A stretch of DNA of 64,000 bases from positions 334 through 64,333 of the forward strand of contig PLTG01000021.1 in the NCBI GenBank assembly GCA_003165355.1. The letters run 5' to 3'. Position 1 is the stretch's first letter. Each line of letters starts with the position of its first letter. Below the pieces are notes generated by a model, which did no database searches, was not told the DNA's origin, and saw only the letters and a list, made by a program, of their open reading frames with translations. The DNA is from Candidatus Babelota bacterium (GTDB lineage Bacteria > Babelota > Babeliae > Babelales > Babelaceae). Shown here in pieces: positions 47,360-63,472 of the stretch. The translations under genes and the position numbers were made by a program.

Positions 47360-47390
47360 CAATAGATATTCTTAGGATGAATAGCCGCTT

Positions 47391-47505
47391 CAGTCTTCGC
47401 TCTTTTGAGCTACGCCCGACAGGCGCCCTGCTGTGTCCGCCATAGCACACTGTGCGACGGCTGGAAGTGAAGCGTAGCGAAATCGAACGGGTACGACGGC
47501 AAAAC
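47391..47505. repeat. GC-rich dispersed repeat, long copy
   Basis: Contains gcgccctgctgtgtccgccatagc...gcgacggctgga (as in 6848-6920 and 7024-7068) fused to the 38-nt core shared with 18673-18710. Lies directly upstream of the five-paralog array. Confidence 0.65.
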
Positions 47506-47546
47506 AAAGTTGCGAAAGAGCTCTAATAAATAAAAAGAGAAATTGT

Positions 47547-49424: not shown

Positions 49425-49454
49425 AGATTGAAATTTTTTGAAGGGGGAAATCGT

Positions 49455-51239
49455 ATGAAAAAAATTATTTTACTTATCTTGCTTCTATCTGGGCAGGTAT
49501 GTGCCCTTCAGCCGGGGCTTGCGTCTGCGCGAAAATTTGCTACACCAATGGAACAATTGCAGGCAAAATCTCGAAGTACTGCTCAGCCAATTCAAACTGA
49601 AGAGATTGATGTTCCGGAATATGCGCCGCGGGCCGTGCTTATTTTTCTGCATGAGCCCAATAATTTTTGTATTCTTGAATCGACTAGCTTAAATTTAACT
49701 GAAGCACTTATTCAAAAAGCTGGTCCAATCATAGTATCAACAAGTCTTTTGCGAAGTGTCTTGAGTTATCATTTGCCCCCATCGATGAATGAAATAGACA
49801 AAAACTATAACCCTTGTAGAAGGCTTTTGACACAATTTGACAGTAATGAATGGGTTATTAAAGAGGCGACAGAAGATCTTTATCTCCTCATTCCCCATAC
49901 GTATCTTAAAATGGTTAATATTGAAGTTGCTGAGCTTCATCAAGAAAATGCAAATTCTTTAACAGCGGTTGAGTTGAAGCTGGGGCTTAAGGTTAATCAT
50001 ATGCGCTCGTTGCCGATCGAAAAGATAAATACCGCAAGTCTTTTGCCGCTCGAGAATAATTATTTTGTGCGTGCATTACAAGAGGGAAAATTATTTTGTG
50101 AGCGGAATAATTATCAAAATAGCGAAGTTCCACAACCATTATGGACATGGTACTTGTCGGGTCATGGAATATTTAAAAATATTATCGCAGGAATTCTATT
50201 GGAGGACTTTAAGAAGGTACTTGCATTCGTTTCAACTAAAATTAACATGCGGTTGCTTATGTATCAGACATGCTATGGCGCTGGAGCAAATACCGAACTT
50301 ATTTACCATGATGAAGAAACAACCTTGCAAAAGACATACCCCTTTATTATTGCCACGCAGGCGATTTCTGATGCACCTACTACACATACTTTTTTTATCC
50401 CAGCTTTGGGTGATAAAATTGCGCGCCCTGATAATTTTCGTGCTTTTGTAGCATTGGTGCTTGAGCAGGACCTTGATTATGAGAGGGCAATCGCCAGTTT
50501 GTTTCATATAAACCCAGACCTCTATTACGCGGGTAATATTGCTCAAATTAAATTGCCGGGAACTGAGTGGTTTTCAGTTATGGCAGGTAAAAATGATGTG
50601 GTGACTATAGGAAAAATCATGGCACGGACGAGAAAAGAGCCATTAGATATACAAAAATTTTTTAGGACAAAAGATCCGAAAGCGATACTTTTAGAATCGA
50701 CTTATATTCCTTTTGAATTGATTATTAACGCGCCGCATATGGAATACATTATTTCTGTTGCTCCGGGTAACATGTCGACATATTTGCGGGGAATCCGTTC
50801 TGAGAAACATGATATAAACCAGATACTTAAATGGTTTCAGGGTATCAGCCTGACTGACGATGAGCTTTTTTATAAAACAATATACATAGAGCATATTGTT
50901 GTACAGGATAAAAAGGGTCAATCAACAGAATATACGGATATTGTAATTATGCCATCTGGAGGCGTCTATTTCAAACATGGTTCAGATATCTTTTTCAAGG
51001 AGCTGGATAAATTTGCCGTAAATAGTGCGCAGGTGCCTAACGATATGTGGGCTAGGGTATATGGGCCATCTTTCATTAAAGATATAAAGGAACGGAGTCT
51101 GAAATATGCACAAAGATCTAATGCGCGTGCCACTGAAAAGACTGAAGGATTATCACCAGAAAACATGAGCAAGCTTGAAGATGCAATCAAACAAAAAGCT
51201 GTAGCGGTTGGTAAATTAAAAAATGAGGGGACGATATGA
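49455..51239 (+). CDS. secreted protein, array paralog 2
   Basis: ATG at 49455 lies behind aagggggaa. WYLSGHG (His 50163) and LLMYQTCYGAG (Cys 50271). The track ORF starts at 49428. Confidence 0.85.
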   Translation: MKKIILLILLLSGQVCALQPGLASARKFATPMEQLQAKSRSTAQPIQTEEIDVPEYAPRAVLIFLHEPNNFCILESTSLNLTEALIQKAGPIIVSTSLLRSVLSYHLPPSMNEIDKNYNPCRRLLTQFDSNEWVIKEATEDLYLLIPHTYLKMVNIEVAELHQENANSLTAVELKLGLKVNHMRSLPIEKINTASLLPLENNYFVRALQEGKLFCERNNYQNSEVPQPLWTWYLSGHGIFKNIIAGILLEDFKKVLAFVSTKINMRLLMYQTCYGAGANTELIYHDEETTLQKTYPFIIATQAISDAPTTHTFFIPALGDKIARPDNFRAFVALVLEQDLDYERAIASLFHINPDLYYAGNIAQIKLPGTEWFSVMAGKNDVVTIGKIMARTRKEPLDIQKFFRTKDPKAILLESTYIPFELIINAPHMEYIISVAPGNMSTYLRGIRSEKHDINQILKWFQGISLTDDELFYKTIYIEHIVVQDKKGQSTEYTDIVIMPSGGVYFKHGSDIFFKELDKFAVNSAQVPNDMWARVYGPSFIKDIKERSLKYAQRSNARATEKTEGLSPENMSKLEDAIKQKAVAVGKLKNEGTI

Positions 51240-52954
51240 AGAAGATTTTGTTACTTGCTTTGCTCATAAGCGGACACCTTTATGCTCTGCAGCCGGGGCT
51301 TGCGTCTGCGCGAAAATTAGCGACGCCAGTGGAGCAATTGCAGACGAAACACCAAAATACTGCTACGGGTACCTTGTATCCTCCGGAGGTGGAGTCGGAC
51401 TTTTCTGCTGTTGAATATGCTCCACGTGGATTACTTATTTTTTTGAATCATCAGCTGAGCAAATCTTGCATTACTGAGGCAATTAGCTTGAATTTAACCG
51501 AGGCGCTCGTTCAAAAGGCCGGACCCATCATCGCATCAAAAAATCTGGTGCACAGTGTCTTAGCCAAGTATCTGCCACCCGCTCAAAAAGGGAATTATTC
51601 TTGGTCCGAAATTGATTTAAATAACGAAAATAATCCGTGTACGAGACTTATTTTGAAATTTAACAGTGATGAATGGGTAATCAAAGAAATAACGCAAGAT
51701 CTTTATCTTCTTATTCCGCAAGCATACCTTTTGTGGGTAACTATCGACCCTGCTGAACTGAGCCTTGATAATGCGGCGTCATTAACGACAACGGAGCTCA
51801 AGCTCGGCCTTAAGGTCAACCATATGCGCACTGTATCGATCGAACAGGTGAATAAGGGGCGCTTCGAGGCCTTAGGCGACGGGTTTATAAAGGCACTGCG
51901 GGAGAATATGCTCTTTTGCGAGCGTAGGAACTATCAAGGGAGCGAAGTGCCTCAACCCCTTTGGACGCTCTATTTTTCCGGGCATGGTGAATTTGAAGAA
52001 ACTATGGCTGGAATGAGTCTTGATGATTTTAAGAAGATGCTTATCTTCGCTTCAGATAAAATCAATGTAAGATTACTTATGTATCAATCCTGCTATGGCG
52101 CGGGGCTTAATGCTGAGCTTATTTATTACGACCAGGCGGCAGCCACCAATAAGACGTATCCCTTTGCCATCGCTACCCAAGCCATTACTGATGCACCTAC
52201 CATTCAAAGTCACGTTGTGTTTGGTAAAAAAGTGCCGCGGCCGGATGACTACCAAGGCTTTATGGCATTGGTGCATGAGCAAGATCTGGATTATAAAAAA
52301 GCGATCGCGTTAGTGTTTCATACGGAGCCAGACATAAGCTATAGGGGCAATATTGCACAAATTAAATTGCCGGGTACAGGATGGTTTTCTGTGGTCGCTG
52401 ATAAAAATCATATTGTGACTATTGGCAACGTCTTGGCTCGTACAAGAAAAAATCCTTTAAATGTTCAAAAATATTTTAAGGCAACGGCATTGAAAGCGCT
52501 TCTTCTTGCCGCGCCCTACATTTTATTTGATCTGATTATCGATGTGCAGTTGGATTTTATCATCTCACTTGTCCCAGGAAGTGGTGCCACGTATCTGCAA
52601 GGGATTCGTTCCGATAAATATCCTATAGATACGATATTGGGTTGGTTTCAGCGCATTCCACTTACTGATAGCAGCCTGTCGCTGGACAAGATGTTTTATA
52701 TAGAGCATATTGTTGCCCCGAATCAAGAGAGGAAATTAACTGAATATACCGATGTTTTCATTGCATCTTCGGGGGGCGCCTATTTTAAGCATGATTCAAA
52801 TATTTTTTTCAAAAATGATCAGCATGTAAGCGCGAAACGTATGACTGAGCCATTTACAGGAGGGGTATTTGGTCCGGCCTATTGGGATGGCTCTCTGGTT
52901 AAAGGCCTAAAGAAGCGAAAGAACAAATATGCAGAGCAAAAATTGCTCAATTAA
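51236..52954 (+). CDS. secreted protein, array paralog 3 (lacks the C-terminal tail)
   Basis: ATGA overlap with copy 2. LYFSGHG (His 51983) and LLMYQSCYGAG (Cys 52091). Ends before the EKTEGLSPEN tail. Confidence 0.85.
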   Translation: MKKILLLALLISGHLYALQPGLASARKLATPVEQLQTKHQNTATGTLYPPEVESDFSAVEYAPRGLLIFLNHQLSKSCITEAISLNLTEALVQKAGPIIASKNLVHSVLAKYLPPAQKGNYSWSEIDLNNENNPCTRLILKFNSDEWVIKEITQDLYLLIPQAYLLWVTIDPAELSLDNAASLTTTELKLGLKVNHMRTVSIEQVNKGRFEALGDGFIKALRENMLFCERRNYQGSEVPQPLWTLYFSGHGEFEETMAGMSLDDFKKMLIFASDKINVRLLMYQSCYGAGLNAELIYYDQAAATNKTYPFAIATQAITDAPTIQSHVVFGKKVPRPDDYQGFMALVHEQDLDYKKAIALVFHTEPDISYRGNIAQIKLPGTGWFSVVADKNHIVTIGNVLARTRKNPLNVQKYFKATALKALLLAAPYILFDLIIDVQLDFIISLVPGSGATYLQGIRSDKYPIDTILGWFQRIPLTDSSLSLDKMFYIEHIVAPNQERKLTEYTDVFIASSGGAYFKHDSNIFFKNDQHVSAKRMTEPFTGGVFGPAYWDGSLVKGLKKRKNKYAEQKLLN

Positions 52955-52970
52955 AAAAACGGGGGAAGTC

Positions 52971-54830
52971 ATGAAGAAGATTTTATTAATTATTGTGCTC
53001 GTATCTGGGCAGATGCGTGCTGCACAGGTCGGGCTTTCGCAGCAGCGTATAACAACGCCTATGGAGCAGTTGCAAGAGCAATACCGCAATGCACCGGTTA
53101 AAGCGAGTGCATATACATTAGAGCAAGAGGCTGGCCAGCCAGATATTGAGTATGCGCCACGCGGATTACTTATATTTTTGGATGAGCCTCGGGAGTATTG
53201 CCTCAAAAAAGAAGCAGTCAGCCTTGATTTGACAGAAGCAATTATTCAAAAAGCAGGGCCAATAATAGTATCGGCTAATATATTGCGAAGTGTTTTGAAA
53301 GATTACTTACCACCGTCAGAAAGAACAATGTATGGGAAAACAGTTTCTTACGTTAAATCTTTCTTTTCAAAAGAGAGTAAATCAGAAAAAGCTTTCAACT
53401 CTTGTGAGATACTTATATCCAAAAACTTTGATAGTAGTGAGTGGATTATAAAAGAGGTATCAAAAGAGCTTTATTGCATGTTGCCCTATACATATCTTGA
53501 CATGGTTAAAGTTGCTCTTGCTGATGTGCAAAAAGAAAATGCGTCCTCTATAACCCCGACTGAATTAACATTAGGACTTAAAGTAAATCATATGCGTAAT
53601 GTAGATATACGAGAAATAAGCACTGCTCAGATTATACCATCAGATAGGTCTTATTTTGTTCGAGCATTGACAGGTGGCAATTTATTCTGCGAGCGTGCAG
53701 CTTATCAAGAAAGTTATATATCGCGGCCTTTATGGACGTGGTACATGATGGGTCATGGATTTGTTAGTCAATACATAGTCGGGATGCCCATTGAAGACTT
53801 TAAAAAAGTGCTTACATTTATCACTGATCATTTAACTATGCGATTACTCGTGTATCAAACATGTTATGGTGCTGGGTTAAATACCGAGCTTGTATATAAT
53901 GATGAAAAAACCAATATGCAAAGAGCATATCCATTTACTATTGTTACACAAGCGATCACTGATGCTAGTGTCGCTCAATTAGTTCTCAGTTATGGTGTCA
54001 AAAGAGAGCGACCACGAGACTTTAGCACTTTTACCAAATATGGTCATGATAACGATATTGATTATGAAAAAGTAATAAAGACAGTGTTTCATATAGCTCC
54101 TGATCCATTTTATAAAGGTAATATCGCACAAATCAAATTGCCTGGAATAGAATGGTTTTCCGTTGTTGCCGGAAAAAATGATGTGGTCGGTATAGGAACT
54201 ATTATGGCTAAAACACGCAGTAAGCCATTAGATATTCATAAATGGTTTAAAGCGGAAAATCCCAGAGCATTGCTTTTAGAAACCACTTATATACCCTTTG
54301 AGATCATTATTAATGTGCCTCATTTAGAATACATAATATCAGTAGTGGCTGGGGAGACTAATACTTATATAGAAGCGATAACTTCTTCAGTGTATGACAT
54401 CAATCAAATTCTTAATACATTCCAGCGTATAGAACTATCTGCGGGTATTGAATTGATGAAAAAAATATACATTTCCCGTATTACTGCATTAAATGATCAG
54501 GGACAACCGACAGAATATAAAGATATCATTATCGCGCCGAATAATAATGTTTATTATACGCAAGGTGCTGATATTTTTTTCAAAAGGCCTGATCAAAAAG
54601 CGGTAAGTACTGCGCAAGAAAGCGATTTATTCCTTAAAATTTATAATAAGCAAGTATTTGATTTCATAAAGAGTCAAGCCCAACGATATGCGAAGAAATC
54701 GAGCAGACGAGCAACTGAAAAAACTGAAGGACTTTCGCCAGAAAGTATCAGTAAACTTGAGAATGTATTAAAAACGCGCGATATATCAAAAGCTACAGCA
54801 GTTGGTGCACTAGCAAAGGCAGGGAAATAA
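52971..54830 (+). CDS. secreted protein, array paralog 4
   Basis: ATG at 52971 lies behind gggggaag. WYMMGHG (His 53754) and LLVYQTCYGAG (Cys 53862). The track ORF starts at 52929. Confidence 0.85.
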   Translation: MKKILLIIVLVSGQMRAAQVGLSQQRITTPMEQLQEQYRNAPVKASAYTLEQEAGQPDIEYAPRGLLIFLDEPREYCLKKEAVSLDLTEAIIQKAGPIIVSANILRSVLKDYLPPSERTMYGKTVSYVKSFFSKESKSEKAFNSCEILISKNFDSSEWIIKEVSKELYCMLPYTYLDMVKVALADVQKENASSITPTELTLGLKVNHMRNVDIREISTAQIIPSDRSYFVRALTGGNLFCERAAYQESYISRPLWTWYMMGHGFVSQYIVGMPIEDFKKVLTFITDHLTMRLLVYQTCYGAGLNTELVYNDEKTNMQRAYPFTIVTQAITDASVAQLVLSYGVKRERPRDFSTFTKYGHDNDIDYEKVIKTVFHIAPDPFYKGNIAQIKLPGIEWFSVVAGKNDVVGIGTIMAKTRSKPLDIHKWFKAENPRALLLETTYIPFEIIINVPHLEYIISVVAGETNTYIEAITSSVYDINQILNTFQRIELSAGIELMKKIYISRITALNDQGQPTEYKDIIIAPNNNVYYTQGADIFFKRPDQKAVSTAQESDLFLKIYNKQVFDFIKSQAQRYAKKSSRRATEKTEGLSPESISKLENVLKTRDISKATAVGALAKAGK

Positions 54831-54860
54831 ATTATAAATTGTGGGAAAGGTGGGACATAT

Positions 54861-56690
54861 ATGAAAAAAATAATCTTGATAATTTTATTAGCAGTTACGC
54901 AAATGCATGCTGCACAAGTTGGTCTTTCGAAACAGCGTATAGTAAGTCCGATGCAGCAATTACAAGAGAAATATCTAATTGAAAAAAATCAAAAGGCTCT
55001 ATTCATTATTCTTAATGAAAACTTGGAAGCGTATCCAAAAGAGAGCATGCAGTCACGTCTTGAATGTTTCTTAAGAACGCAGAATTTCCCTATTATTACT
55101 AAAAAAAATCTTTTAATACGCGTAGTTGATAGTAACCCGGATATTTTTAAAAAAAATAAATGGTTCATTAAAAAATGTGATAACTATGTTCTCCTGGTTC
55201 CATTTGAACAGATTGAGGCCGACGAGTCAATCGATTTAATACCTGGCTTGCCTTCTCATGAACTTACTGATTTAGAAAAAAAATTGGGGCTAAAAATCAA
55301 TCACCTCGAAACGCTTGATCATCAAATTTTTGTATCAAATGAAACAAACAGTTCTAAAATTGTCTCCCGTGTTGTTGATACTATAACAGGCTCTATTAAA
55401 GGCGATATTCTTTTTTCTAAGATAAGAGGACATCATCCCAGATTCAACGATGTTTTATCCAAAATATTTGTCGTCCATACTGATATATACCCAAAAGGAT
55501 CGCATAAAGAAATTCATAAAGAGGAAGCCGAATGGGTGATCATGGCAGCGGGCCATGGTGGAGGAATAGGCATAGACCGGACCTCATTTTGGTCGGTTAT
55601 AGCTGATTTTTCATTGACAGAATTTAAGAAAATGATGGATTTTTTTAAGAGATCGCTCTCTATAAAAGTTGTTTTTATCCAGTCTTGTAGTATCGGCAAA
55701 AATATCGCACAAGATGTATTTACTTCTGAAAATTTAGATAATACGATACAGCAAGCGTATCCTTTTGATATTATTTTTTCGGCTATGGGAGATGAATACA
55801 CATATTTTGAGAAGCATGCATGTGAAAAGGGCGCATATAGTGAATTTATTAAAAAAATAAATGCTACGTCAAACCCAGATTATTATACAATTTTAAATAA
55901 AACTATCGTACAATCACATAGTGAAAATCCAGTGCCCCAAATTCGTTATAAAAATACCGAATACTTTTTACCTGTTTATGCGCTTTCTTCAAAGATTCAG
56001 GACGCCCTCATTATCAGTAATGTTATGGCTGCTACGCGTAAAGAACCGTTAATAATAAAACGCACTATTAAAAATGTAGTACTCTATTCTCCAGTGATCT
56101 CCTTTCCTATTAAATTAGCGAAAGAATTTTTTGGAAACTGGTACTATAAGTTTAAACCATCAGTGGACTTTGTATCTTCTTTTTTTGAAAATAAAGTTAT
56201 TCGCTTTTTTTCTTTGGAAATTGAATATCCGACACAACTTTCCTATAAATGGAAGCAACTGGATTCTGGAAAATTGGGTATATTCTGCGATTTATTGGTT
56301 ATTAATGATTGGGCATCAGTTCCATACCCGGGCGTCGCTGAGCAACAGTTAAGAGAGATTTTTCCCGGTGCAAAAAATGTAGCTGTTGATCCAACTCGCG
56401 CAAATTATTTATTGGGAAAAGTAACATTGTATAATGTAGCTTTCACTAAAGAAGCTGTTACTGGGATGGTAAGGTCACCAGATAATCGTGAATATATTGT
56501 GATATATAAAGATGGCAGTATTATGCAATTAAGCCCTGCGGACAGCACAAAGAAAAAACAGGATTATATTGTTGCCTTTGAAAAAAGATTTGGGAAAATT
56601 CCACAGATGCCAGAAAGCATGAGTAAACTTGATGAATTATTTGAAAAACGTGTAGCGGCGGCGGCTGTTGGGAAGCTGGCAAGCTCTTAA
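54861..56690 (+). CDS. secreted protein, array paralog 5 (divergent)
   Basis: Same leader and AAQVGLSKQRIVSPMQQLQ start. VIMAAGHG (His 55554) and VVFIQSCSIG (Cys 55686). Same AAAAVGKLASS C-terminus as copy 1. The rest is much more divergent. Confidence 0.8.
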   Translation: MKKIILIILLAVTQMHAAQVGLSKQRIVSPMQQLQEKYLIEKNQKALFIILNENLEAYPKESMQSRLECFLRTQNFPIITKKNLLIRVVDSNPDIFKKNKWFIKKCDNYVLLVPFEQIEADESIDLIPGLPSHELTDLEKKLGLKINHLETLDHQIFVSNETNSSKIVSRVVDTITGSIKGDILFSKIRGHHPRFNDVLSKIFVVHTDIYPKGSHKEIHKEEAEWVIMAAGHGGGIGIDRTSFWSVIADFSLTEFKKMMDFFKRSLSIKVVFIQSCSIGKNIAQDVFTSENLDNTIQQAYPFDIIFSAMGDEYTYFEKHACEKGAYSEFIKKINATSNPDYYTILNKTIVQSHSENPVPQIRYKNTEYFLPVYALSSKIQDALIISNVMAATRKEPLIIKRTIKNVVLYSPVISFPIKLAKEFFGNWYYKFKPSVDFVSSFFENKVIRFFSLEIEYPTQLSYKWKQLDSGKLGIFCDLLVINDWASVPYPGVAEQQLREIFPGAKNVAVDPTRANYLLGKVTLYNVAFTKEAVTGMVRSPDNREYIVIYKDGSIMQLSPADSTKKKQDYIVAFEKRFGKIPQMPESMSKLDELFEKRVAAAAVGKLASS

Positions 56691-56797
56691 CAGGAGTCTA
56701 ATTTTTAGAGATTTTCAGGGCCGATTTTAAAGTAGTTAACTGAGAGATTACGAAATTTTTTGCTACCTGTACATATTTGATGCCGAAAGTATTAGGT

Positions 56798-57370
56798 TTA
56801 AGCGCTGTGGATCTGTTTTGCAAAAAGATACAGATTATCATCGTCATCTTCATTTTCATAAGTAGCCATCTTTCCACCGATATAGGTAAAGCCAAGCTTA
56901 TTATAAAATCCTCTTGCAGAGGGCAAGCTTTCAAGAGACATCGAATTATACCCTAAAAGATGGGCAATAGCTGTATTATCAAAAACTTCGATACAAGCAC
57001 GTCCGATGCCCTTATTTCGATAGTCTGCATGGACATCTATGCTATTTATAAAAAAGGCTGTATCTTTTTTGGTACGTAAAAAACTTGCTTTAAAATCAAG
57101 ATAATTATTTTCAGTTTTTAACTTGATGATAAATCCCTTTTTTTTGGGATTTTTAATTATAGTCCCCTGTAATGAGGCACCTGCTTGAGCGAGGGTAATT
57201 TTTTTTGATAATGGAAGTAATTGCAGTGCGAGGGCTGGCTCTAGTGCTTGCCATCTATCAGCAAAACGGATTTGTGCCTCTGAATCGCACGTGATGTTTA
57301 TCGGAAATTCTTGAGCATGCAGCGATATGCTTGCGAGTAATAAGAGCTTAATGATTTGCAGTTTTGCCAT
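56798..57370 (-). CDS. secreted GNAT-family N-acetyltransferase
   Basis: Leader MAKLQIIKLLLLASISLHA. Acetyl-CoA motif A VHADYRNKGIGRACIE, followed by ARGFYNKLGF. Confidence 0.8.
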   Translation of the reverse strand: MAKLQIIKLLLLASISLHAQEFPINITCDSEAQIRFADRWQALEPALALQLLPLSKKITLAQAGASLQGTIIKNPKKKGFIIKLKTENNYLDFKASFLRTKKDTAFFINSIDVHADYRNKGIGRACIEVFDNTAIAHLLGYNSMSLESLPSARGFYNKLGFTYIGGKMATYENEDDDDNLYLFAKQIHSA

Positions 57371-57381
57371 ACTAAAATACC

Positions 57382-58413
57382 TTATTCTTCATCTTGCCAA
57401 GTTAGTAAAACTTTTACTTTGTCTGGTATTTCTGCTGGACGAGTAGTCATCTTTCTACCGCGCAGATCAACTAATTCTAAATCTGGCAATTGACTGAGAA
57501 TCGTCCAATCTGCTTTCATTTTGATAGCGCTATTTTGAACAAGATGCAACTTTCTCAGTTTTTTAAAATTGCGTAGCTCTTCTGGGAGTTTTCTCATATT
57601 GCAATCATTCAATCCTAAATCTTGAACCGATGTTGGAATATATTCCCAATGAACATCAGGAGATGAGAAATCATTATGAACGATCCAAAGATTTTTTAAA
57701 TTATTTAAAGAACGTAACCATTCTGGCAATTGTGTTAAGTCGCATCCCGGTAAAGATAGATCTTCTAATTTTTGAGAAATAGACTCTAGATGATACTGGT
57801 TGTGCAATGAGTTTCCTCTAAGATTTAACCGCTTCAAATGAGTTAAAGAGCTTATTTGCTGGGGTATCTGTGTGAGGCCGTATGCAGTTATTGATAATTT
57901 TTGCAGATTTGTGCATTTCTCTAGTAGGCTGAGATCTAATGGGTTTTGCTCATTGTCTTTTGAATAAAAATAATGAGAAGGCTCACAAATATCGATTTCA
58001 AGTAAATCCCCACTGGCACATTCTTTAAGTGCCTTGTTGAAATTTCGATATCTCCCCCATTGAGTCACAAAATGTCGACTATCAAGTTTTGTGAATGCGA
58101 TCTGCGTCAATATTTTTGTTGCCGTACTTACTTGCTTAAGCTTTAGTATGTCGCCATATAAATAATTTGCCATATGGGTAAAAATTTCCGGTGGTAGCTT
58201 CTCTAATAAACGGGGGTCCCCTTGAGATTCTTGATGCGATTGAGTTGTTGATACGAGTTGCGTATCTTCAGAGGCCACAGGCTGGGCTAATGGTTGTTGA
58301 ATAAGGCGGCTTAAGGTAAGCCCACAATGAATATTTGATAAAAAGCTTATACAGAAAATTATGAATATGTGATATAACTTCGTAAAAAGTTTAATGATTT
58401 GCAGTTTTGCCAT
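57382..58413 (-). CDS. F-box / leucine-rich-repeat protein (eukaryote-like)
   Basis: ATG at 58413 gives MAKLQIIKLF plus a hydrophobic leader. The F-box-like LEKLPPEIFTHMANYLYGDILKLKQVS spans about nt 58084-58212. This is followed by LxxLxL repeats (LQKLSITAYGLTQIP, LKRLNLRGNSL, LEDLSLPGCDLTQLP and others). Confidence 0.8.
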   Translation of the reverse strand: MAKLQIIKLFTKLYHIFIIFCISFLSNIHCGLTLSRLIQQPLAQPVASEDTQLVSTTQSHQESQGDPRLLEKLPPEIFTHMANYLYGDILKLKQVSTATKILTQIAFTKLDSRHFVTQWGRYRNFNKALKECASGDLLEIDICEPSHYFYSKDNEQNPLDLSLLEKCTNLQKLSITAYGLTQIPQQISSLTHLKRLNLRGNSLHNQYHLESISQKLEDLSLPGCDLTQLPEWLRSLNNLKNLWIVHNDFSSPDVHWEYIPTSVQDLGLNDCNMRKLPEELRNFKKLRKLHLVQNSAIKMKADWTILSQLPDLELVDLRGRKMTTRPAEIPDKVKVLLTWQDEE

Positions 58414-58414
58414 G

Positions 58415-59248
58415 TTAGAATCCCTGTAAGAAAGTGTTGCCATTTTTGATATTTTTTATGAAATGTATGCCAAAATGGTTAGGTATAAGTGATGCTGCAA
58501 GTTGGCCACCGAAAAAGAACCCTTGTTCGGGAGTTATTGCCATCATTTTCGCTAATGGAGATGTCTTTGCCTCTTTCTCTAAGCGCTCGAGCTGTCGCGC
58601 AAGACGTTCATCAGTCGTAAGATTTTCAGGTGTTGATGTAGCAGGTTTTTGCACTTCAGGATGCTTAAAATAGCGCTCTAAAAGCCAGGGGCCCATAAAT
58701 GATACTGCGGTAGAGCCGACAGCAAGCACACGGACAAGGAGCGTTCCACGCGCGCCGGCAAGAGCACCTGCTTTATTCAGTTTATAGGTACCGTAACGTG
58801 CCTTAAAGGCTTTTTTACTTGCTTCGTCTCTGGCCTTAGGGTCCTGATACGATTCTTCTATAGTAGCATGATCAAGGGTCGTTTGAACTGCCTTTTTTGC
58901 ATGAGCTTCAGCAGCGCCCTTTACGGTATCTGAGACGTTGAGCAAGCCTGAGTTTACTGCAGTTATGAGAGTTAAGGCAAGGGGGAATGCAGCAAATGCT
59001 GCCCCAGATGCTGTTAAAACTGCTGTTTGGCCTTGGGTCATCTGGGGGAGTTCCCACAAATGGGTACGTAGACCAATGCCTTGATTGAGTGCAGCTTGGG
59101 CTATAAAACCTGTAGTAAAATGTGCAGCATAACGAGTAAGTGAGCTTTTATCAAGCTGAAAAGCTGCAGAGTCTTCTTTTTGAGCCATGAGAGGGCTTAA
59201 TGCAAAAGAAAGCAAAAATATCTTTTTATTCAAAAAGTTCATTATCAT
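58415..59248 (-). CDS. secreted or membrane hypothetical protein
   Basis: ATG at 59248 (or 59242) gives the leader MIMNFLNKKIFLLSFALSPLMA and avoids overlap with pepA. Two long hydrophobic segments. The stop lies 1 nt from the F-box gene start. Confidence 0.6.
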   Translation of the reverse strand: MIMNFLNKKIFLLSFALSPLMAQKEDSAAFQLDKSSLTRYAAHFTTGFIAQAALNQGIGLRTHLWELPQMTQGQTAVLTASGAAFAAFPLALTLITAVNSGLLNVSDTVKGAAEAHAKKAVQTTLDHATIEESYQDPKARDEASKKAFKARYGTYKLNKAGALAGARGTLLVRVLAVGSTAVSFMGPWLLERYFKHPEVQKPATSTPENLTTDERLARQLERLEKEAKTSPLAKMMAITPEQGFFFGGQLAASLIPNHFGIHFIKNIKNGNTFLQGF

Positions 59249-59360
59249 GATTATTCCCTGGTTATTTTTATTATTAAATATAAATATATCATAACTGAAA
59301 ATAATGTCAATCTGGGGGGAATGGGTGTGTAGTCTGACGAATGAAGTCTTTTTCTTCTTC

Positions 59361-59369
59361 TGGTATACT
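59361..59369 (+). promoter_or_regulatory. candidate extended -10 element upstream of pepA
   Basis: TGGTATACT, the same 9-mer as at 8880-8888, lies about 39 nt upstream of the pepA ATG. Confidence 0.3.
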
Positions 59370-59407
59370 ACTGATGTGATAATTTTTATTATTAAGAAAG
59401 AGCCATT

Positions 59408-60922
59408 ATGATTACTTTTAAACTTGCTGATCAGCATATACTGAATCAAGAGGCTGATTTATATGTGGGGTTTTGCCCTCAAAATGCCATCCCAGAAAAC
59501 ATTATAAGAGATTTTACCTCGCTCTATGCCCCGCTTAATGATCTTATTAAAAAAAGAAATTTTGCAGGTGCTGCAGGAAGCCAATTGGTTATCTCCGCCG
59601 CGCGTAATAACAAAGCGGTAACGCTTATGCTTGTCGGTCTCGGGTCTGAAAAAAAGTCTCAGGCAGACAGGTTAGAAAATGCGCGTCGAGCAATGGGTTT
59701 AGTGGTAAGAACAGTAGAGCATACCAAATCAACGCATGCCGCCGTTCTTTTACCCGATCACCACTGGTTTGCAATCAATGAATTTGAATTGACTAAAGAG
59801 CTTGTTGCAACGGCGATGATGGCAGGTTACCATTTTGACCAATTTATTACCGATGCAGCTGCAAAACTAACACAAAATTGTGAAATTACTCTCTGCGCTC
59901 CGGCGATTTTACATAATCAAATTTCAGTTGGTGTAGAATTTGGTCAACGTATTGGCCATGCGGTCAACCAAGCGCGCCAATGGTGCGATTTGCCCGCCGA
60001 TATTTTAACGCCAACTATTTTAGCTGAGCATGCTGCACGCATTGCAAAAGTGCATGATTTGAAGGCTACTATTTTTGATGAAGCGACCGTCAAAAAAATG
60101 GGCATGGGTGGCCTTGCAGGAGTTTCAGCAGGTTCTGCACAAGAGTGTAGATTTGTAGCTATTGAATATAAGAGTGGTCACCAAGATGCCCCTACTCTTG
60201 TATTAACGGGTAAGGGTGTCACCTTCGATTCAGGCGGCATTAGTATTAAGCCCGCAAATCGTATGGACGAGATGAAAGATGATATGGCTGGCGCAGCTGC
60301 GGTGATCTCTACGATGGAGGCCATTGCGCATCTTAAACCGCGCGTGAATGTTATCGGTATTACGCCAATTGCTGAAAACATGCCGAGCGGCACTGCGATC
60401 AAGCCGGGCGATATTATTACTTTTTATAACGGCATGACTGCGGAAGTTAAAAACACTGACGCAGAAGGGCGCTTAATTTTAGCTGACGCGTTATCCTATG
60501 CCGTTAAACATTATAAGCCTGATGCGATTATTAATGTGGCAACTTTGACTGGTTCATGTGCCGCTGCGCTCGGGCCATTCTTTGCGGGTATGATGAGTAA
60601 CCATGACGATCTGGTTGAAAAATTAACCAAAGCATCAAAACGCTCCGGCGACAGGCTCTGGAGATTGCCGTTTCATGATGATTACAAAAAGGCGGTTCGC
60701 TCAAGTGTGGCAGACATCTGTAACATTGGTAATGAAACATATAAAGCTGGGGCTATTACGGCTGGGTTCTTCTTGCAAAATTTTGTCGGTGATACGCCAT
60801 GGGTACATTTGGATATTGCGGGCACCTCGTTTAATGTTCCTGATATGAGCTACTATCGCCCGGGAGCTACTGGTTTTGGCGTTCGATTATTTATAGACTT
60901 TTTGATGCATTTTGAAGAATAA
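59408..60922 (+). CDS. pepA: leucyl aminopeptidase (M17)
   Basis: VGKGVTFDSGGISIKP-like LTGKGVTFDSGGISIKP, and NTDAEGRLILADAL. Confidence 0.96.
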   Translation: MITFKLADQHILNQEADLYVGFCPQNAIPENIIRDFTSLYAPLNDLIKKRNFAGAAGSQLVISAARNNKAVTLMLVGLGSEKKSQADRLENARRAMGLVVRTVEHTKSTHAAVLLPDHHWFAINEFELTKELVATAMMAGYHFDQFITDAAAKLTQNCEITLCAPAILHNQISVGVEFGQRIGHAVNQARQWCDLPADILTPTILAEHAARIAKVHDLKATIFDEATVKKMGMGGLAGVSAGSAQECRFVAIEYKSGHQDAPTLVLTGKGVTFDSGGISIKPANRMDEMKDDMAGAAAVISTMEAIAHLKPRVNVIGITPIAENMPSGTAIKPGDIITFYNGMTAEVKNTDAEGRLILADALSYAVKHYKPDAIINVATLTGSCAAALGPFFAGMMSNHDDLVEKLTKASKRSGDRLWRLPFHDDYKKAVRSSVADICNIGNETYKAGAITAGFFLQNFVGDTPWVHLDIAGTSFNVPDMSYYRPGATGFGVRLFIDFLMHFEE

Positions 60923-60950
60923 TAACTATCACACTACTTTTTGGAGATTT

Positions 60951-61256
60951 ATGAAAAAGCTAGCTTTATCCGTGACGCTTGCGATCACCGCAATAACCCT
61001 TCATGCATGTGGCGACCATCCCGAGCATGAACACGCATCCGCTCCTGTGGATATAAAGGAAGCTGACGCAGAGTGTAGAGAAATCCTTGAGTTTATTTTA
61101 GCTCAAGAAAATAACCTCAAAGCTGATGATCTTTTTAAGCGGCGAGATACTATACTTGCCCGAGGGACTTTAACTGATAAATGTAAAATTGTTCTATCGT
61201 TACTTGAATTACACATTTCCGAGCATATCAAAAGAAAAGACACAGGCTTAATGTAA
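60951..61256 (+). CDS. putative lipoprotein
   Basis: ATG at 60951 lies behind ggaga. MKKLALSVTLAITAITLHACG carries a lipobox. The track ORF starts at 60912, inside pepA. Confidence 0.6.
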   Translation: MKKLALSVTLAITAITLHACGDHPEHEHASAPVDIKEADAECREILEFILAQENNLKADDLFKRRDTILARGTLTDKCKIVLSLLELHISEHIKRKDTGLM

Positions 61257-61261
61257 TTATA

Positions 61262-61292
61262 ATAAGGGGCGAGAGAATCGCCCCTTATTCTT
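61262..61292 (+). terminator. rho-independent terminator
   Basis: Hairpin aaggggcg-agagaa-tcgcccctt followed by a T-rich run. Confidence 0.7.
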
Positions 61293-61358
61293 TATTGTGG
61301 TTTTAGATCTATTTCATTTACCATAAATATAAGTTTGTATGTTAATTGGGGGTAAAGC

Positions 61359-62384
61359 ATGAAAAAGATAGTTATAGGATTGTTACTATACGTACAGCAT
61401 GGATACGGTATTGAGCCGATCGGCTTAACAAACCTGGGTAATACCTGCTACATCAATTCGACTTTGCAATGTTTAGGTGCTATTCCAGAGTTAAGAAACT
61501 ATATCTTTAAATTTAGCTCGCACGATCCATTAACAGAAGAATTTAAAAGAATGCTCAAAAGCCCTATTGCTGGCCCGAAAGCGTTTGTAGAATGCGTCTC
61601 TGAAACCGGGATAATGGGTAAATTAGCAATTAATGCGCAACAGGACGCCGCCGAATTTTATGAAAAATTGATAAATAAATTACAACCGCAAGAAACAATA
61701 CACAATTTATTTCGCATCAATACAAAAATGGACACAATTTCTGCAAGCCGTGAATTTAAGCGTGAGCCCGTAATACAAGAAAGCACTATATTAAGAATCG
61801 GGTCACAATTTGTAACCAAGCAAAAGGGGATGTCGATTGAGGCTCTTATTAAAAATTATTTTTTGATTCCCCAAGAAGATACCATTCAAGTAGAAAGAGA
61901 TGGCGTCAATAAAGAATTTGATATTAAAGAAAAAAATAGTGGCCTGCATCTTTCCCCAATTCTGGTTGTTGCTGTGCCGCGTTTTGATATGGAGGGCAAT
62001 AAAATAAAAACGCCTCTATGGTCCAACATGAAGCCTCTTATTCTTACCGATGCTAAAAAAAATAAACATACCTATAACCTTTTAGGGTGCGTTTTACATG
62101 CAGGCGAAACGGTAGATAGTGGCCACTATACTGCAGTAGCACGATATGATAATGAATGGTTTTATTGTGATGATACGCAAGTGAGCCTTCAAGCGGAAAG
62201 CCAAGTGGGAGCGCGTTTAAGTAATCAAGATAATTTCGATTCTTACCTCTACTTTTTTAGAAAAGATTTCCCCCTCACATTGCAGCAAGTAGCCGACGAA
62301 GAAAAGAAATCACACTATCGGGGAGATCGGATCGTTCAAAAACAATTACCATTTCAACGTGGTCTGGCTGATGTTATTGAATGA
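61359..62384 (+). CDS. USP/UBP-type ubiquitin-specific cysteine protease (C19-like) with signal peptide
   Basis: Cys box GLTNLGNTCYINSTLQCL (Cys codon 61446), a QQDAAEF motif, and His box GHYTAVARYDNEWFYCDDTQV. Leader MKKIVIGLLLYVQHGYG. Confidence 0.85.
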   Translation: MKKIVIGLLLYVQHGYGIEPIGLTNLGNTCYINSTLQCLGAIPELRNYIFKFSSHDPLTEEFKRMLKSPIAGPKAFVECVSETGIMGKLAINAQQDAAEFYEKLINKLQPQETIHNLFRINTKMDTISASREFKREPVIQESTILRIGSQFVTKQKGMSIEALIKNYFLIPQEDTIQVERDGVNKEFDIKEKNSGLHLSPILVVAVPRFDMEGNKIKTPLWSNMKPLILTDAKKNKHTYNLLGCVLHAGETVDSGHYTAVARYDNEWFYCDDTQVSLQAESQVGARLSNQDNFDSYLYFFRKDFPLTLQQVADEEKKSHYRGDRIVQKQLPFQRGLADVIE

Positions 62385-63472
62385 TGAGCATTTTTTACGC
62401 AATTAATAATAATTCCGATCATGCAAAGATGCGACAAGAGTGATGATGCCCCGTAGCTGATAAAAGGCAGCCCTATCCCTTTGGTAGGCAGCAATGCACA
62501 AGCAACGCCGATATTGATAGTCGTTTGCAGGGTGATAAGAATAATAATCCCTGCTATGCACAAGAAGGGGAAAAGGTCCTGCATCGACGCAGCGAGTTTC
62601 AGCCCTACAAAACAAAAGAGTGCATAGATTACTATCAGCGCGCAGACGCCTACAAAGCCAGTCTCTTCAGCGATAATAGCAAAAATAAAATCAGTATGAT
62701 GCATAGGCAAATAAAAGAACTTCTGTTTTGACCCTGCTATGCCCAAGCCCGTCCAGCCCCCTGAACCGATTGCGATAAGTGATTGGATAATCTGAAACCC
62801 TGCGCCTTGCGGATCTTTCCATGGATTTTGATAAATTAAAATGCGGTGAAAGCGGTAAGGTTTAAGAAATACCAGGAGCCCTAAGATAGGCAGCACGGGG
62901 ATTGCCGTGAATGCAAGATAGCGTAGTGGCACTTGTGCAAGAAAAAAAAGAATCGCAGCGGTCAAACTGAGCGTGACCATCTGCCCAAAATCTGGTTGCA
63001 GCAACAAAATACCTGCTGTGATGCCGATGACACAGAGCAATTGTGTATAGTGCACAAGCGAATGCAAGGTGAACTGTTTTTTATCGAGAAAGTAGGCGCA
63101 ATATACAATAAAAAAAAGTTTTAATAATTCACTGGGTTGAAAAGAAAATCCCATGAGAGACAGCCATCTGTGCGAACCATGTATTGAAACACCTATATGG
63201 GGCACAAGCGTTGCCGCGGTTGCCAGGAGTGCGCACAAGAAAAAAAATGGCGCCGCTTTTTTGAGAAATGGTAATGGTATAACACTAAAAAAGATGCATC
63301 CAACTATTCCCAGGACGAGTCCTAAAAACTGTTTTTTAACATAAAATAGAGCATCATTATACCGCTCTAATGCATATGCTGAGCTTGATGAATAGATAAA
63401 GATAAAACCGATAGTGGTTAAGAGAGTTACCAAAAATAAAAATATATAAAGATTCGTTAAGTTCTTTTTCAT
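62354..63472 (-). CDS. SEDS-family peptidoglycan polymerase (FtsW/RodA)
   Basis: 10-TM protein with GSGGWTGLGIAGSKQKFFYLPMHHTDFIFAIIAEETGFVG. The 3' end overlaps the convergent USP gene by 31 nt. Confidence 0.9.
   Translation of the reverse strand: MKKNLTNLYIFLFLVTLLTTIGFIFIYSSSSAYALERYNDALFYVKKQFLGLVLGIVGCIFFSVIPLPFLKKAAPFFFLCALLATAATLVPHIGVSIHGSHRWLSLMGFSFQPSELLKLFFIVYCAYFLDKKQFTLHSLVHYTQLLCVIGITAGILLLQPDFGQMVTLSLTAAILFFLAQVPLRYLAFTAIPVLPILGLLVFLKPYRFHRILIYQNPWKDPQGAGFQIIQSLIAIGSGGWTGLGIAGSKQKFFYLPMHHTDFIFAIIAEETGFVGVCALIVIYALFCFVGLKLAASMQDLFPFLCIAGIIILITLQTTINIGVACALLPTKGIGLPFISYGASSLLSHLCMIGIIINCVKNAHHSITSARPR

Follow-up and report, generated by a model that had tools for sequence, protein, structure and literature searches.

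The window (the whole 64,000-nt stretch of DNA that we analyzed) contains a gene for a homolog of the ubiquitin-specific proteases (USPs, peptidase family C19), which lies between pepA and a convergent ftsW/rodA gene (Table 1). A small ORF (60912-61256) lies upstream of the USP gene, and because an intrinsic terminator closes off this ORF, the USP gene forms a transcription unit of its own. We considered the small ORF as an obligate partner or chaperone of the USP and rejected this idea: it is only 21-31% conserved, it is absent from two of the loci (L001 and L004), and the terminator separates it from the USP gene. NCBIfam has no model for the USP, for the small upstream ORF, or for a family of secreted paralogs that is also encoded upstream, and an Rfam search of the whole window gave no matches. 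The five secreted paralogs carry the same signal grammar as the USP (see below).

Table 1. Features of the USP locus, in window coordinates (aa, residues of the USP).
Feature	Position	Strand	Details
pepA (leucyl aminopeptidase M17)	59408..60922	+	conserved upstream synteny anchor
Intrinsic terminator	61261..61289	+	12-bp stem with 6 G-C pairs, then T-run; ends the small upstream ORF
Shine-Dalgarno-like GGGGG	61348..61352	+	6 nt before the ATG
USP (peptidase C19) gene	61359..62384	+	341 aa; ATG start; stop TGA at 62382-62384
Signal-peptide-like N-terminus	61359..61409	+	aa 1-17; n-region MKK, h-region IVIGLLLYV, c-region QHGYG
Predicted USP catalytic domain	61419..62255	+	aa 21-299; Pfam PF00443 envelope
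Cys box GLTNLGNTCYINSTLQCL	61422..61475	+	aa 22-39
QQD box QQDAAEF	61638..61658	+	aa 94-100
Predicted Fingers subdomain	61716..61949	+	strands at aa 120-128, 138-142, 172-180, and 183-197; pLDDT >90; short, without zinc ribbon
His/Asp box GHYTAVARYDNEWFYCDDTQV	62121..62183	+	aa 255-275
USP/ftsW convergent 3' overlap	62354..62384	.	31 nt
ftsW/rodA	62354..63472	-	PF01098, E = 2.7e-95; conserved downstream synteny anchor
C-terminal tail motif RGLADV	62358..62375	+	family consensus RG[LFC][AG]DV[LI]; region predicted to be disordered

The first-pass annotation had recognized a USP (C19) homolog from its motifs and had named the Pfam UCH family (PF00443) as the profile to search with. Indeed, PF00443 matches the protein end to end (E = 1.1e-31; 110.8 bits as compared to a cutoff of 23.9; profile positions 1-253 of 254), and a sequence search matched 65 solved structures of USPs. 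The predicted fold and the conservation of the family, which are described below, also agree with this assignment. By its sequence, the protein is a genuine C19/USP-family deubiquitinase homolog of the eukaryotic type, and deubiquitinase activity is predicted. It consists of a single minimal domain of about 280 amino acids, directly after the signal-like segment. A profile search found no match to PF00240 (UBL), so the N-terminal UBL domain of the USP14/Ubp6 type is absent.

The three signature motifs that had been quoted are all present in the order given: the Cys box, QQDAAEF, and the His box. The core of the Cys box (NLGNTCYIN) fits the family pattern N-x-G-N-T-C-[YF]-x-N and includes the putative oxyanion-hole residue Asn25 (codon 61431-61433) and the putative catalytic cysteine, Cys30 (codon 61446-61448). 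The choice of Cys30 as the nucleophile holds up, as it aligns with C114 of USP14. In the His box (SGHYTA), the catalytic residue would be His256 (codon 62124-62126), which is followed by the aromatic gatekeeper Tyr257. The segment WFYCDDTQV fits the pattern W-x-x-x-[DN]-D-x-x-V and contains the putative catalytic Asp271 (codon 62169-62171) and then Asp272. His256, Asp271, and Asp272 align with H435, D451, and D452 of USP14. In an alignment of 36 diverse USPs, N25, C30, D96, H256, and D272 do not vary and E99 has a conservation of at least 90%; position 271 is asparagine in two of the relatives (P0002 and P0004). We take D96 and E99, within the QQD box, to be the acidic residues of USPs that hold the C-terminal tail of ubiquitin. 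The protein has cysteines only at positions 30, 38, 79, 244, and 270, none of which forms a CxxC, so the zinc ribbon (two CxxC motifs at the fingertip) is absent. The zinc ribbon is a common feature of USPs, but some of them do without it (e.g., USP7 and USP14), and it does not define the family.

An AlphaFold2 model of the protein (pLDDT 84.4, pTM 0.83) is a compact Thumb-Palm-Fingers arrangement, with the Thumb at about residues 21-118, the Fingers at about 120-197, and the Palm at about 201-302. Residues 30-118 are helical in the model and are followed by the beta strands of the Fingers and the Palm. In blocks of 10 residues around C30, H256, and D271, pLDDT is 82-95. The top matches from Foldseek are USP14, USP35, USP46, USP2, USP21, and USP12, with E around 1e-20, TM scores of 0.62-0.70, and nearly full-length alignments; USP18 is also among the matches. 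When scores are normalized by the length of the target, the best structural matches are compact USPs from giant viruses (TMt up to 0.86). We can confidently predict that the protein adopts the canonical USP fold in a compact, zinc-less form. The tail motif RGLADV lies outside of these subdomains, within the overlap with ftsW. We considered whether the motif could be a by-product of constraint on FtsW and rejected this, as ftsW of L003 reads the shared DNA in another frame and the USP motif stays.

A USP fold need not imply that ubiquitin is the substrate. USPL1 acts on SUMO and USP18 acts on ISG15, so some USP-fold enzymes have switched modifiers. The protein from the window might likewise act specifically on NEDD8, on SUMO (as USPL1 does), or on another ubiquitin-like modifier of protists instead of ubiquitin. 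USP18 is among the fold matches, and SnUSP2 from Simkania negevensis is reactive towards ISG15 probes as well (PMC10643670). However, the canonical boxes and the acidic residues for the ubiquitin tail (D96 and E99) are conserved, the best matches by both sequence and fold are ubiquitin-specific USPs, and the bacterial USPs that have been characterized prefer ubiquitin. We therefore view a dedicated activity on another modifier as improbable.

The first-pass annotation had also proposed a signal peptide; the layout of n-, h-, and c-regions and its conservation across the family fit this. In 7 of 7 family members (the protein from the window, P0002, P0003, and P0132-P0135), with identities as low as 29%, a basic n-region is followed by a hydrophobic core of 8-12 amino acids that abuts the Cys box. 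The same layout, with the signal and then the Cys box, is found in at least 28 further cluster representatives (clusters at 50% identity); other short USPs do not have the hydrophobic N-terminus. By the rule of small residues at -3 and -1, cleavage might occur after G17 (GYG|I), which is not a textbook AXA site, and some orthologs have unusual c-regions (Y or F at -3 in P0002 and P0003). In the AlphaFold2 model, residues 1-17 form a detached, low-confidence helix. By these heuristics and by its conservation, the N-terminus is signal-peptide-like and is probably a Sec signal. A lipoprotein was considered and rejected: there is no cysteine ahead of C30, and the orthologs have no lipobox. Sec export by itself reaches the periplasm only, and we did not identify any genes for type II secretion within the window.

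Elsewhere in this group of bacteria, a type II secretion core is encoded in TM6 genomes, with two copies of gspD (PMC4776705). In Chromulinavorax, 44% of coding sequences have signal peptides, and its effectors are thought to be exported by Sec or carried in vesicles (PMC6561590). The explanation that we prefer, and which we consider likely as a whole, is that the protein is an active, minimal, Sec-exported USP that serves intracellular Dependentiae as an anti-host deubiquitinase. It would be a cysteine protease of the canonical fold, without accessory domains and with Fingers that are short and zinc-less, and its signal peptide would direct it out of the cytoplasm of an obligately intracellular bacterium. 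It would then be released or exposed to the host cytosol, most plausibly by type II secretion or by outer-membrane vesicles. Cys30, His256, and Asp271 would hydrolyze the linkage that follows the C-terminal Gly-Gly of host ubiquitin; ubiquitin would be stripped from the bacterium, from its compartment, or from host proteins; and this stripping may blunt the protist host's ubiquitin-dependent autophagy or degradation. In this scheme, we infer that the signal is cleaved, how the protein is secreted, that it acts on ubiquitin, and that it works against the host. A literature search found no paper that reports activity, secretion, or localization for any USP from the Dependentiae.

A different use of an exported USP would be to stay in the periplasm or bound to the surface and to clean the bacterium's own envelope of ubiquitin, possibly including ubiquitin that is ester-linked to non-protein molecules, instead of diffusing freely in the host cytosol as an effector. 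This would fit with a Sec-type signal that is not accompanied by any recognized signal for crossing a host membrane. TssM from Burkholderia, which is another Sec/T2SS USP, is reported to reverse the ubiquitylation of LPS (PMC10371091), and Dependentiae replicate while touching the host cytoplasm or organelles (PMC6561590). Nevertheless, an intact periplasm is closed to ubiquitin, and surface exposure of the enzyme would therefore still be required; LPS and the outer membrane are degenerate in Babeliales (PMC4776705); and the canonical Fingers suggest ordinary ubiquitin-protein substrates. On balance, we consider envelope cleaning to be unlikely, if less so than a switch of modifier.

The USP gene has a long history at this locus. 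The gene order pepA-(small ORF)-USP-ftsW, with USP and ftsW convergent, is kept in every ortholog, down to 35% identity, and the gene lies between the same bacterial neighbors in at least five independent assemblies. The more distant family members P0134 and P0135 are in other gene contexts. The overlap of 31 nt with the FtsW/RodA gene is exactly as first described, but the view that it marks a tightly packed insertion does not survive comparison. Synteny extends to 35% identity, the composition of the gene is native (GC of 0.381 vs. 0.404 for the window; codon usage correlation of 0.85), there are no flanking repeats or mobile elements around the gene within the window, and, although other orthologs have overlaps of 40, 41, and 40 nt, the deepest ortholog (L013) has a 2-nt gap instead. 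The same comparisons bear on whether the gene is an artefact, in which DNA from a eukaryote or a giant virus was wrongly joined to a bacterial contig during assembly, or was inserted only very recently. The eukaryote-type domain and the resemblance to giant-virus USPs might raise this suspicion, but the orthologs have diverged in place, the gene has a bacterial Shine-Dalgarno sequence and an upstream intrinsic terminator, and its composition and its neighbors are as just described. We reject contamination or a chimeric contig on the basis of synteny across independent assemblies and native composition, and we give the artefact explanation as a whole virtually no weight. Instead, the gene has been inherited vertically for a long time in the chromosomal backbone of a clade of Dependentiae.

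The gene is also under purifying selection. Among the orthologs, pS is saturated at around 0.77 while pN is 0.28-0.35, and dN/dS is about 0.22 in the comparison to L013; because synonymous sites are saturated even among close orthologs, the usable measures are limited to pN, pS, and a single deep comparison. The USP orthologs are 52-54% identical, as compared to about 86% for the flanking pepA and about 83% for ftsW. This fast divergence fits an arms race but would also fit partly relaxed constraint. An IS element disrupts the USP gene in L004 and L005, and ftsW is intact there; thus, at least one lineage can do without the USP gene.

The strict adjacency to ftsW, with overlapping 3' ends in four orthologs, along with the unusual cell division of Babela (PMC4378268), could hint at a housekeeping or envelope protease that has nothing to do with host ubiquitin and perhaps has a functional link to ftsW and cell division, its N-terminus serving as a membrane anchor. 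But the two genes are convergent and are not co-transcribed, the overlap is missing in L013, P0134 and P0135 are found in other contexts, and the USP gene was lost to the IS element in one lineage while ftsW remained intact. Also, an h-region of 9-12 amino acids is too short for a transmembrane helix, and there are no genes for bacterial ubiquitin-like conjugation near the USP gene. We consider a housekeeping role to be very improbable.

As for where the gene came from, the first-pass annotation had noted that USP-fold enzymes of bacteria are usually read as horizontal acquisitions from eukaryotic hosts. A eukaryotic origin is plausible for the deep past only: the nearest relatives are other short bacterial USPs with signal peptides, not eukaryotic proteins, and no donor can be named. 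The eukaryotic matches are led by USP14/Ubp6-like proteins, mostly via the Cys box, and there is no amoebozoan signal among them. In profile searches of the PDB, USP14 scored 67.5 bits, USP2 scored 63.9 bits, and USP21 scored 58.6 bits; because the scores of the subfamilies are only a few bits apart, they do not single out any subfamily as the donor. An ancient acquisition from a eukaryote or a giant virus, followed by diversification among bacteria, is the probable history of the gene. The EF-G of the organism is 76-77% identical to sequences from Babela, Babeliaceae, and TM6, which places the organism in the Dependentiae (TM6). A scan of a genome collection identified 8 loci, but because the patterns that were used are very specific, this is not an estimate of how common bacterial USPs are.

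A more ambitious reading, which we offer tentatively because we doubt that it holds in full, is that these proteins form a distinct and largely monophyletic bacterial lineage of minimal USPs that traces to one ancient capture, with delivery by Sec and type II secretion and a functional tail. The lineage would be defined by a signal peptide that is fused straight to a zinc-less USP of about 280 amino acids (at least 28 clusters at 50% identity), and within the Dependentiae it would have been passed down vertically and would have diversified over a very long period. Host ubiquitin would be reached by Sec and type II secretion and not by type III or type IV secretion, and the disordered RG-x-A-D-V tail would be a regulatory, pseudo-substrate, or targeting element.

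The USPs of eukaryotes (USP14/Ubp6 is nearest, followed by USP2, USP21, USP12/46, and USP35) share the fold, the triad, and the signature boxes of the protein from the window. The resemblance to USP14 is striking in the Cys-box region (IEPIGLTNLGNTCYINSTLQC vs. ELPCGLTNLGNTCYMNATVQC), but overall identity is only about 17-24%. Compared to these, the protein from the window is shorter (about 280 amino acids), has no UBL or accessory domain and no zinc ribbon, and has a signal peptide. The USPs of giant viruses (Nucleocytoviricota), such as Pithovirus LCPAC404 and Hyperionvirus, are of similar size (273-284 amino acids), have a very similar fold (RMSD of 2.8 Å), and share an amoebal or protist habitat with the organism, but they are just 18-22% identical in sequence. 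In the sequence searches, short USP-only proteins from metagenomes that lack the hydrophobic N-terminus fall outside of the innermost clade of the protein from the window.

The first-pass annotation had presented a bacterial USP as a rarity, and this was overstated. In 2015, Babela massiliensis, the type genome of the Dependentiae, was described as encoding "three secreted C19 ubiquitin hydrolases" (PMC4378268). By their description, these are from the same phylum and the same protease family, with predicted secretion, and both they and our protein are known from genome analysis alone. The EF-G of Babela is only about 77% identical to that of our organism, and that report does not include the synteny, fold model, tail motif, or family extent that we describe here. 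SnUSP1-3 from Simkania negevensis cleave ubiquitin (Boll et al. 2023, PMC10643670). Like our protein, they have a canonical USP domain that retains the active-site residues and the aromatic gatekeeper, and they are from an amoeba-associated intracellular bacterium. In contrast, they are large, with hydrophobic regions and with catalytic domains that begin at about residues 100-200, and Simkania belongs to the Chlamydiae and has type III secretion, whereas our protein is a minimal domain right behind a predicted signal peptide. Burkholderia TssM is a USP-class deubiquitinase that leaves the cell through Sec and the type II system (Hermanns et al. 2023, PMC10719079). In TssM, a "Littlefinger" loop stands in for the Fingers, which are missing entirely, and there is an Ig-like domain at the N-terminus, while our protein has four predicted Fingers strands and no extra domain; TssM was not among the top 50 fold matches or the top sequence matches. 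Finally, the predicted USPs of Amoebophilus asiaticus (such as Aasi_1805, PMC8831229) are, by description, comparable, as they are from an obligate symbiont of amoebae and are up-regulated early in infection, but that organism is from another phylum (Bacteroidota). The gene extends a known theme of USPs in bacteria and in Dependentiae, and it does not overturn current understanding.

USP-class deubiquitinases from bacteria are few, and in the literature that we searched, those that have been characterized are TssM and SnUSP1-3, with none from the Dependentiae. The Dependentiae are a widespread phylum of obligate parasites of protists, with almost no experimental biology of effectors. The USP described here is a small, soluble-looking candidate (about 320 amino acids without the signal) that is suited to asking how a canonical USP exported by Sec and type II secretion recognizes ubiquitin, and whether protist hosts turn ubiquitin-based xenophagy on Dependentiae. 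Its conservation in place provides a dated case, of which there are few, of how a eukaryote-type gene settled into the backbone of a bacterial chromosome. If the single-lineage reading were true, it would be a second, independent case of deubiquitination delivered by type II secretion, and one in which, unlike in TssM, the Fingers would have been retained.

The gene under study encodes a homolog of the C19 (USP) deubiquitinase family, as the first-pass annotation had proposed from three hallmark motifs: profile, motifs and fold agree. We found the open reading frame at the position claimed, with an ATG start and GGGGG upstream at 6-nt spacing, and the three motifs in the order claimed. PF00443 (UCH) matches the protein over profile positions 1-253 of 254 (E=1.1e-31); at 110.8 bits, with a gathering cutoff of 23.9 bits, this is by score far beyond chance. 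There were also 65 sequence matches to solved USP structures. No NCBIfam model matches the protein, and a Pfam search found no accessory domain.

Features of the USP gene, its product and their surroundings (nucleotide positions are in the window unless a locus is named; L-handles are loci or contigs in other assemblies that carry relatives)
Feature	Position	Description
USP gene	61359..62384 (+)	341 aa
Cys-box motif	aa 22-39 of USP	GLTNLGNTCYINSTLQCL
QQD motif	aa 94-100 of USP	QQDAAEF
His-box motif	aa 255-275 of USP	GHYTAVARYDNEWFYCDDTQV
n-region	USP N-terminus	MKK
h-region	USP N-terminus	IVIGLLLYV
c-region	USP N-terminus	QHGYG
Thumb	aa ~30-118	helical (AlphaFold2 model)
Fingers	aa 120-128, 138-142, 172-180, 183-197	four strands (AlphaFold2 model)
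Palm		beta-rich (AlphaFold2 model)
USP tail motif	62358-62375 (+)	RG[LFC][AG]DV[LI]
Convergent ftsW/rodA	62354..63472 (-)	PF01098, E=2.7e-95
USP-ftsW overlap	window	31 nt
USP-ftsW overlap	L001	40 nt
USP-ftsW overlap	L003	41 nt
USP-ftsW overlap	L004	40 nt
USP-ftsW overlap	L013	none, 2-nt gap
Variable-looking island	~47380-59400	~12 kb, between conserved 221-aa gene and pepA
Tandem paralogs	47547-56690 (+)	five genes, 572-633 aa
First gene of array	47547-49424	
Leucine-rich-repeat protein	57382-58443 (-)	LRR_4, LRR_8, related families
Small ORF	60912-61256 (+)	114 aa, between pepA and USP gene
IS element	L004 7063-8036	DDE_Tnp_1 transposase, 287 aa
IS element	L005 6511-7374	DDE_Tnp_1 transposase, 287 aa
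Tandem USP genes	L018 (metagenome contig) 109-1958	322 aa and 294 aa, 4-nt overlap

An AlphaFold2 model built from a 36-sequence alignment (mean pLDDT 84.4, pTM 0.83, catalytic domain mostly >90) has Thumb, Fingers and Palm. Its first Foldseek matches are canonical catalytic domains, those of USP14, USP35, USP46, USP2, USP21 and USP12 (E~1e-20, TM 0.62-0.70), and compact giant-virus USPs match it too (TMt up to 0.86). In a profile alignment, C30, H256 and D271 correspond to the residues of human USP14 that we take to be C114, H435 and D451. N25, C30, D96, H256 and D272 are invariant in 36 of 36 aligned USPs. Because the sequence has no CxxC pair, the Fingers are zinc-less. Given the three subdomains, the catalytic residues and the lack of an accessory domain, the protein is predicted from sequence and model to be a minimal yet complete USP; unlike TssM, the USP-class deubiquitinase of Burkholderia, which is fingerless, it has Fingers strands, so it is not TssM-like.

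The proposal that the protein carries a signal peptide is likely to be correct. The Cys box begins three to four residues after the c-region, and the n/h/c layout, not the sequence, is kept in all family members down to 29% identity (the related database protein P0132, for example, begins MKKTLLFLCVLIFVSVNA|SE). An exhaustive HMMER search found signal-like N-termini in at least 28 cluster representatives, along with other short USP-only proteins that lack one. The proteins of the five-paralog secreted family, encoded a few kb upstream, follow the same signal grammar. The hydrophobic core is not long enough to anchor the protein in a membrane, no lipobox is present in the window protein or its orthologs, and in the AlphaFold2 model the segment is a detached helix of low confidence. 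Some c-regions in the family are atypical, so the signal peptide is rated no higher than likely.

The best-supported reading is that the protein is a Sec-exported deubiquitinase effector. The Sec-type N-terminal signal would export it; the literature context suggests that it would then be released beyond the periplasm, and homology suggests that ubiquitin would be its substrate. The core genome of TM6 bacteria includes type II secretion, with gspD present in two copies (PMC4776705), effectors of Chromulinavorax are proposed to be Sec-exported and vesicle-borne (PMC6561590), and type II secretion is the export route of the USP TssM (PMC10719079). SnUSP1-3 of Simkania provide a tested precedent for ubiquitin as substrate (PMC10643670). 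A rival explanation is that the enzyme is retained at the surface for "self-cleaning", possibly with esterase activity, for which the esterase activity of TssM is a parallel (PMC10371091); another is that it is a Ubl-specific protease. As judged from the sequence, the ubiquitin-tail-binding and catalytic apparatus is intact. Two further rivals, a function in the bacterial envelope or in division and an artefact, are poorly supported.

By its gene content (hflX, ffh, trmD, murC, yidC, fusA and a ribosomal-protein/rpoA cluster), the window is ordinary bacterial chromosome. Because its EF-G is closest, among named sequences, to those of Candidatus Babeliaceae, Babela massiliensis and TM6 bacteria (76-77% identity), we place the host, which is uncultured, in the Dependentiae (TM6), a phylum whose members parasitise protists as obligate intracellular bacteria (PMC4776705, PMC6561590, PMC4378268).

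The overlap with ftsW is exactly as long as claimed, and the tightly packed insertion that was read from it proved wrong. Among 5.8 billion clustered proteins, the USP has only three close relatives (45-52% identity), and a profile search extends this set by four, at 29-35%. All of the close relatives lie between pepA and convergent ftsW, and P0132, an ortholog at 35% identity, has the same position in two assemblies. Furthermore, the gene has native composition (GC 0.381, window 0.404; GC3 0.336, where the window's other genes span 0.276-0.496; a correlation of 0.85 in codon usage with the rest) and sits in conserved backbone, outside the island. The overlap arose later, in one sub-clade, since its size varies and L013 lacks it. 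With it, the USP is also longer at its C-terminus; the AlphaFold2 model predicts a disordered tail (pLDDT about 30). The tail motif lies inside the overlapping region and is conserved in the L001, L003 and L004 equivalents. In L003, the relative frame of ftsW in this stretch is a different one, so conservation of the motif is independent of the antisense frame.

The protein is 52-54% identical to its L001 counterpart, as compared to ~86% for pepA and ~83% for ftsW. The USP gene thus diverges much faster than its neighbours, which is often the pattern in host-interaction genes. By our estimates, selection on it is purifying (pS ~0.77, which is saturated, and pN 0.28-0.35 among close orthologs; dN/dS ~0.22 to the deepest ortholog). 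In one lineage, represented by two independent MAGs (L004 and L005), a DDE-transposase IS element (~975 bp) has inserted at nt 484-493 of the ortholog and split it, duplicating a ~10-bp target of USP sequence, so in some settings the gene is dispensable. The sequences of L004 and L005 differ downstream of the IS, pointing to a rearrangement, or to a break in the assembly, at that element. The tandem genes of L018 indicate that some lineages have undergone local duplication within this family.

The position immediately upstream of pepA appears to be a variable island, because L001, otherwise collinear with the window from the ribosomal genes through ftsW, lacks it and L004 and L005 have other genes there, including a Peripla_BP_6 protein. 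In the window, the island contains the five paralogs, a GNAT acetyltransferase, the leucine-rich-repeat protein and a 344-aa ORF. Four of the paralogs are mutually 43-56% identical; the fifth is only 23-25% identical, and its C-terminal 26-aa stretch is 77% identical to the array's first gene. All five have textbook signal peptides (MKKIILLILLxSGQxxA|LQ), none has a Pfam match, and the one at 47547, the sole paralog checked, has no NCBIfam match. The array resembles an expanded family of secreted proteins with no assigned function, possibly effectors. The leucine-rich-repeat protein is a eukaryote-like repeat protein of a kind typical of intracellular symbionts. The small ORF likely has its true start at M14; this yields MKKLALSVTLAITAITLHAC, which resembles the leader of a secreted protein or a lipoprotein. 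This ORF is directly followed by a strong terminator; it has weak positional counterparts (21-31% identity) at L003, L013 and L014 and none at L001 and L004.

Acquisition from a eukaryote, or from a giant virus, is plausible from these comparisons, but it would be ancient, and score differences among USP subfamilies are too marginal for a donor to be named. The nearest eukaryotic matches are USP14/Ubp6-like, chiefly because the stretch around the Cys box is very similar. A rapidly built NJ tree of 250 USP domains, indicative only as it has no support values, places the window USP inside a clade made almost wholly of short signal-peptide USPs, and 24 of 26 such proteins share one 49-leaf clade. 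Among other related database proteins, P0247, P0248, P0249, P0251 and P0254 (1,286-3,205 aa, predicted) are made up of 3-10 USP domains joined head to tail, whose scores are nearly identical (10 copies of 205 bits each in P0247); these may be real poly-USP arrays, or else artefacts of assembly or gene calling. Two MAGs titled "Chlamydia trachomatis" (L010 and L012) match the Cys-box stretch only (aa 22-58 and aa 22-45, respectively); the label is doubtful, and they are probably environmental Chlamydiae that may carry divergent USP-like genes.

The premise that bacteria seldom carry a USP fold is fair, but genes of exactly this kind had been noted before: three secreted C19 hydrolases were reported for Babela massiliensis in 2015 (PMC4378268). 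Predicted USPs were also known from Amoebophilus (PMC8831229), and Simkania has canonical USPs that have been validated (PMC10643670). This limits the novelty of the gene. Our literature search found no deubiquitinase assay tied to any Dependentiae taxon. What is modestly new is how widely the architecture of a signal peptide followed by a minimal USP occurs, the long retention of the gene at one chromosomal position, and the conserved C-terminal tail.
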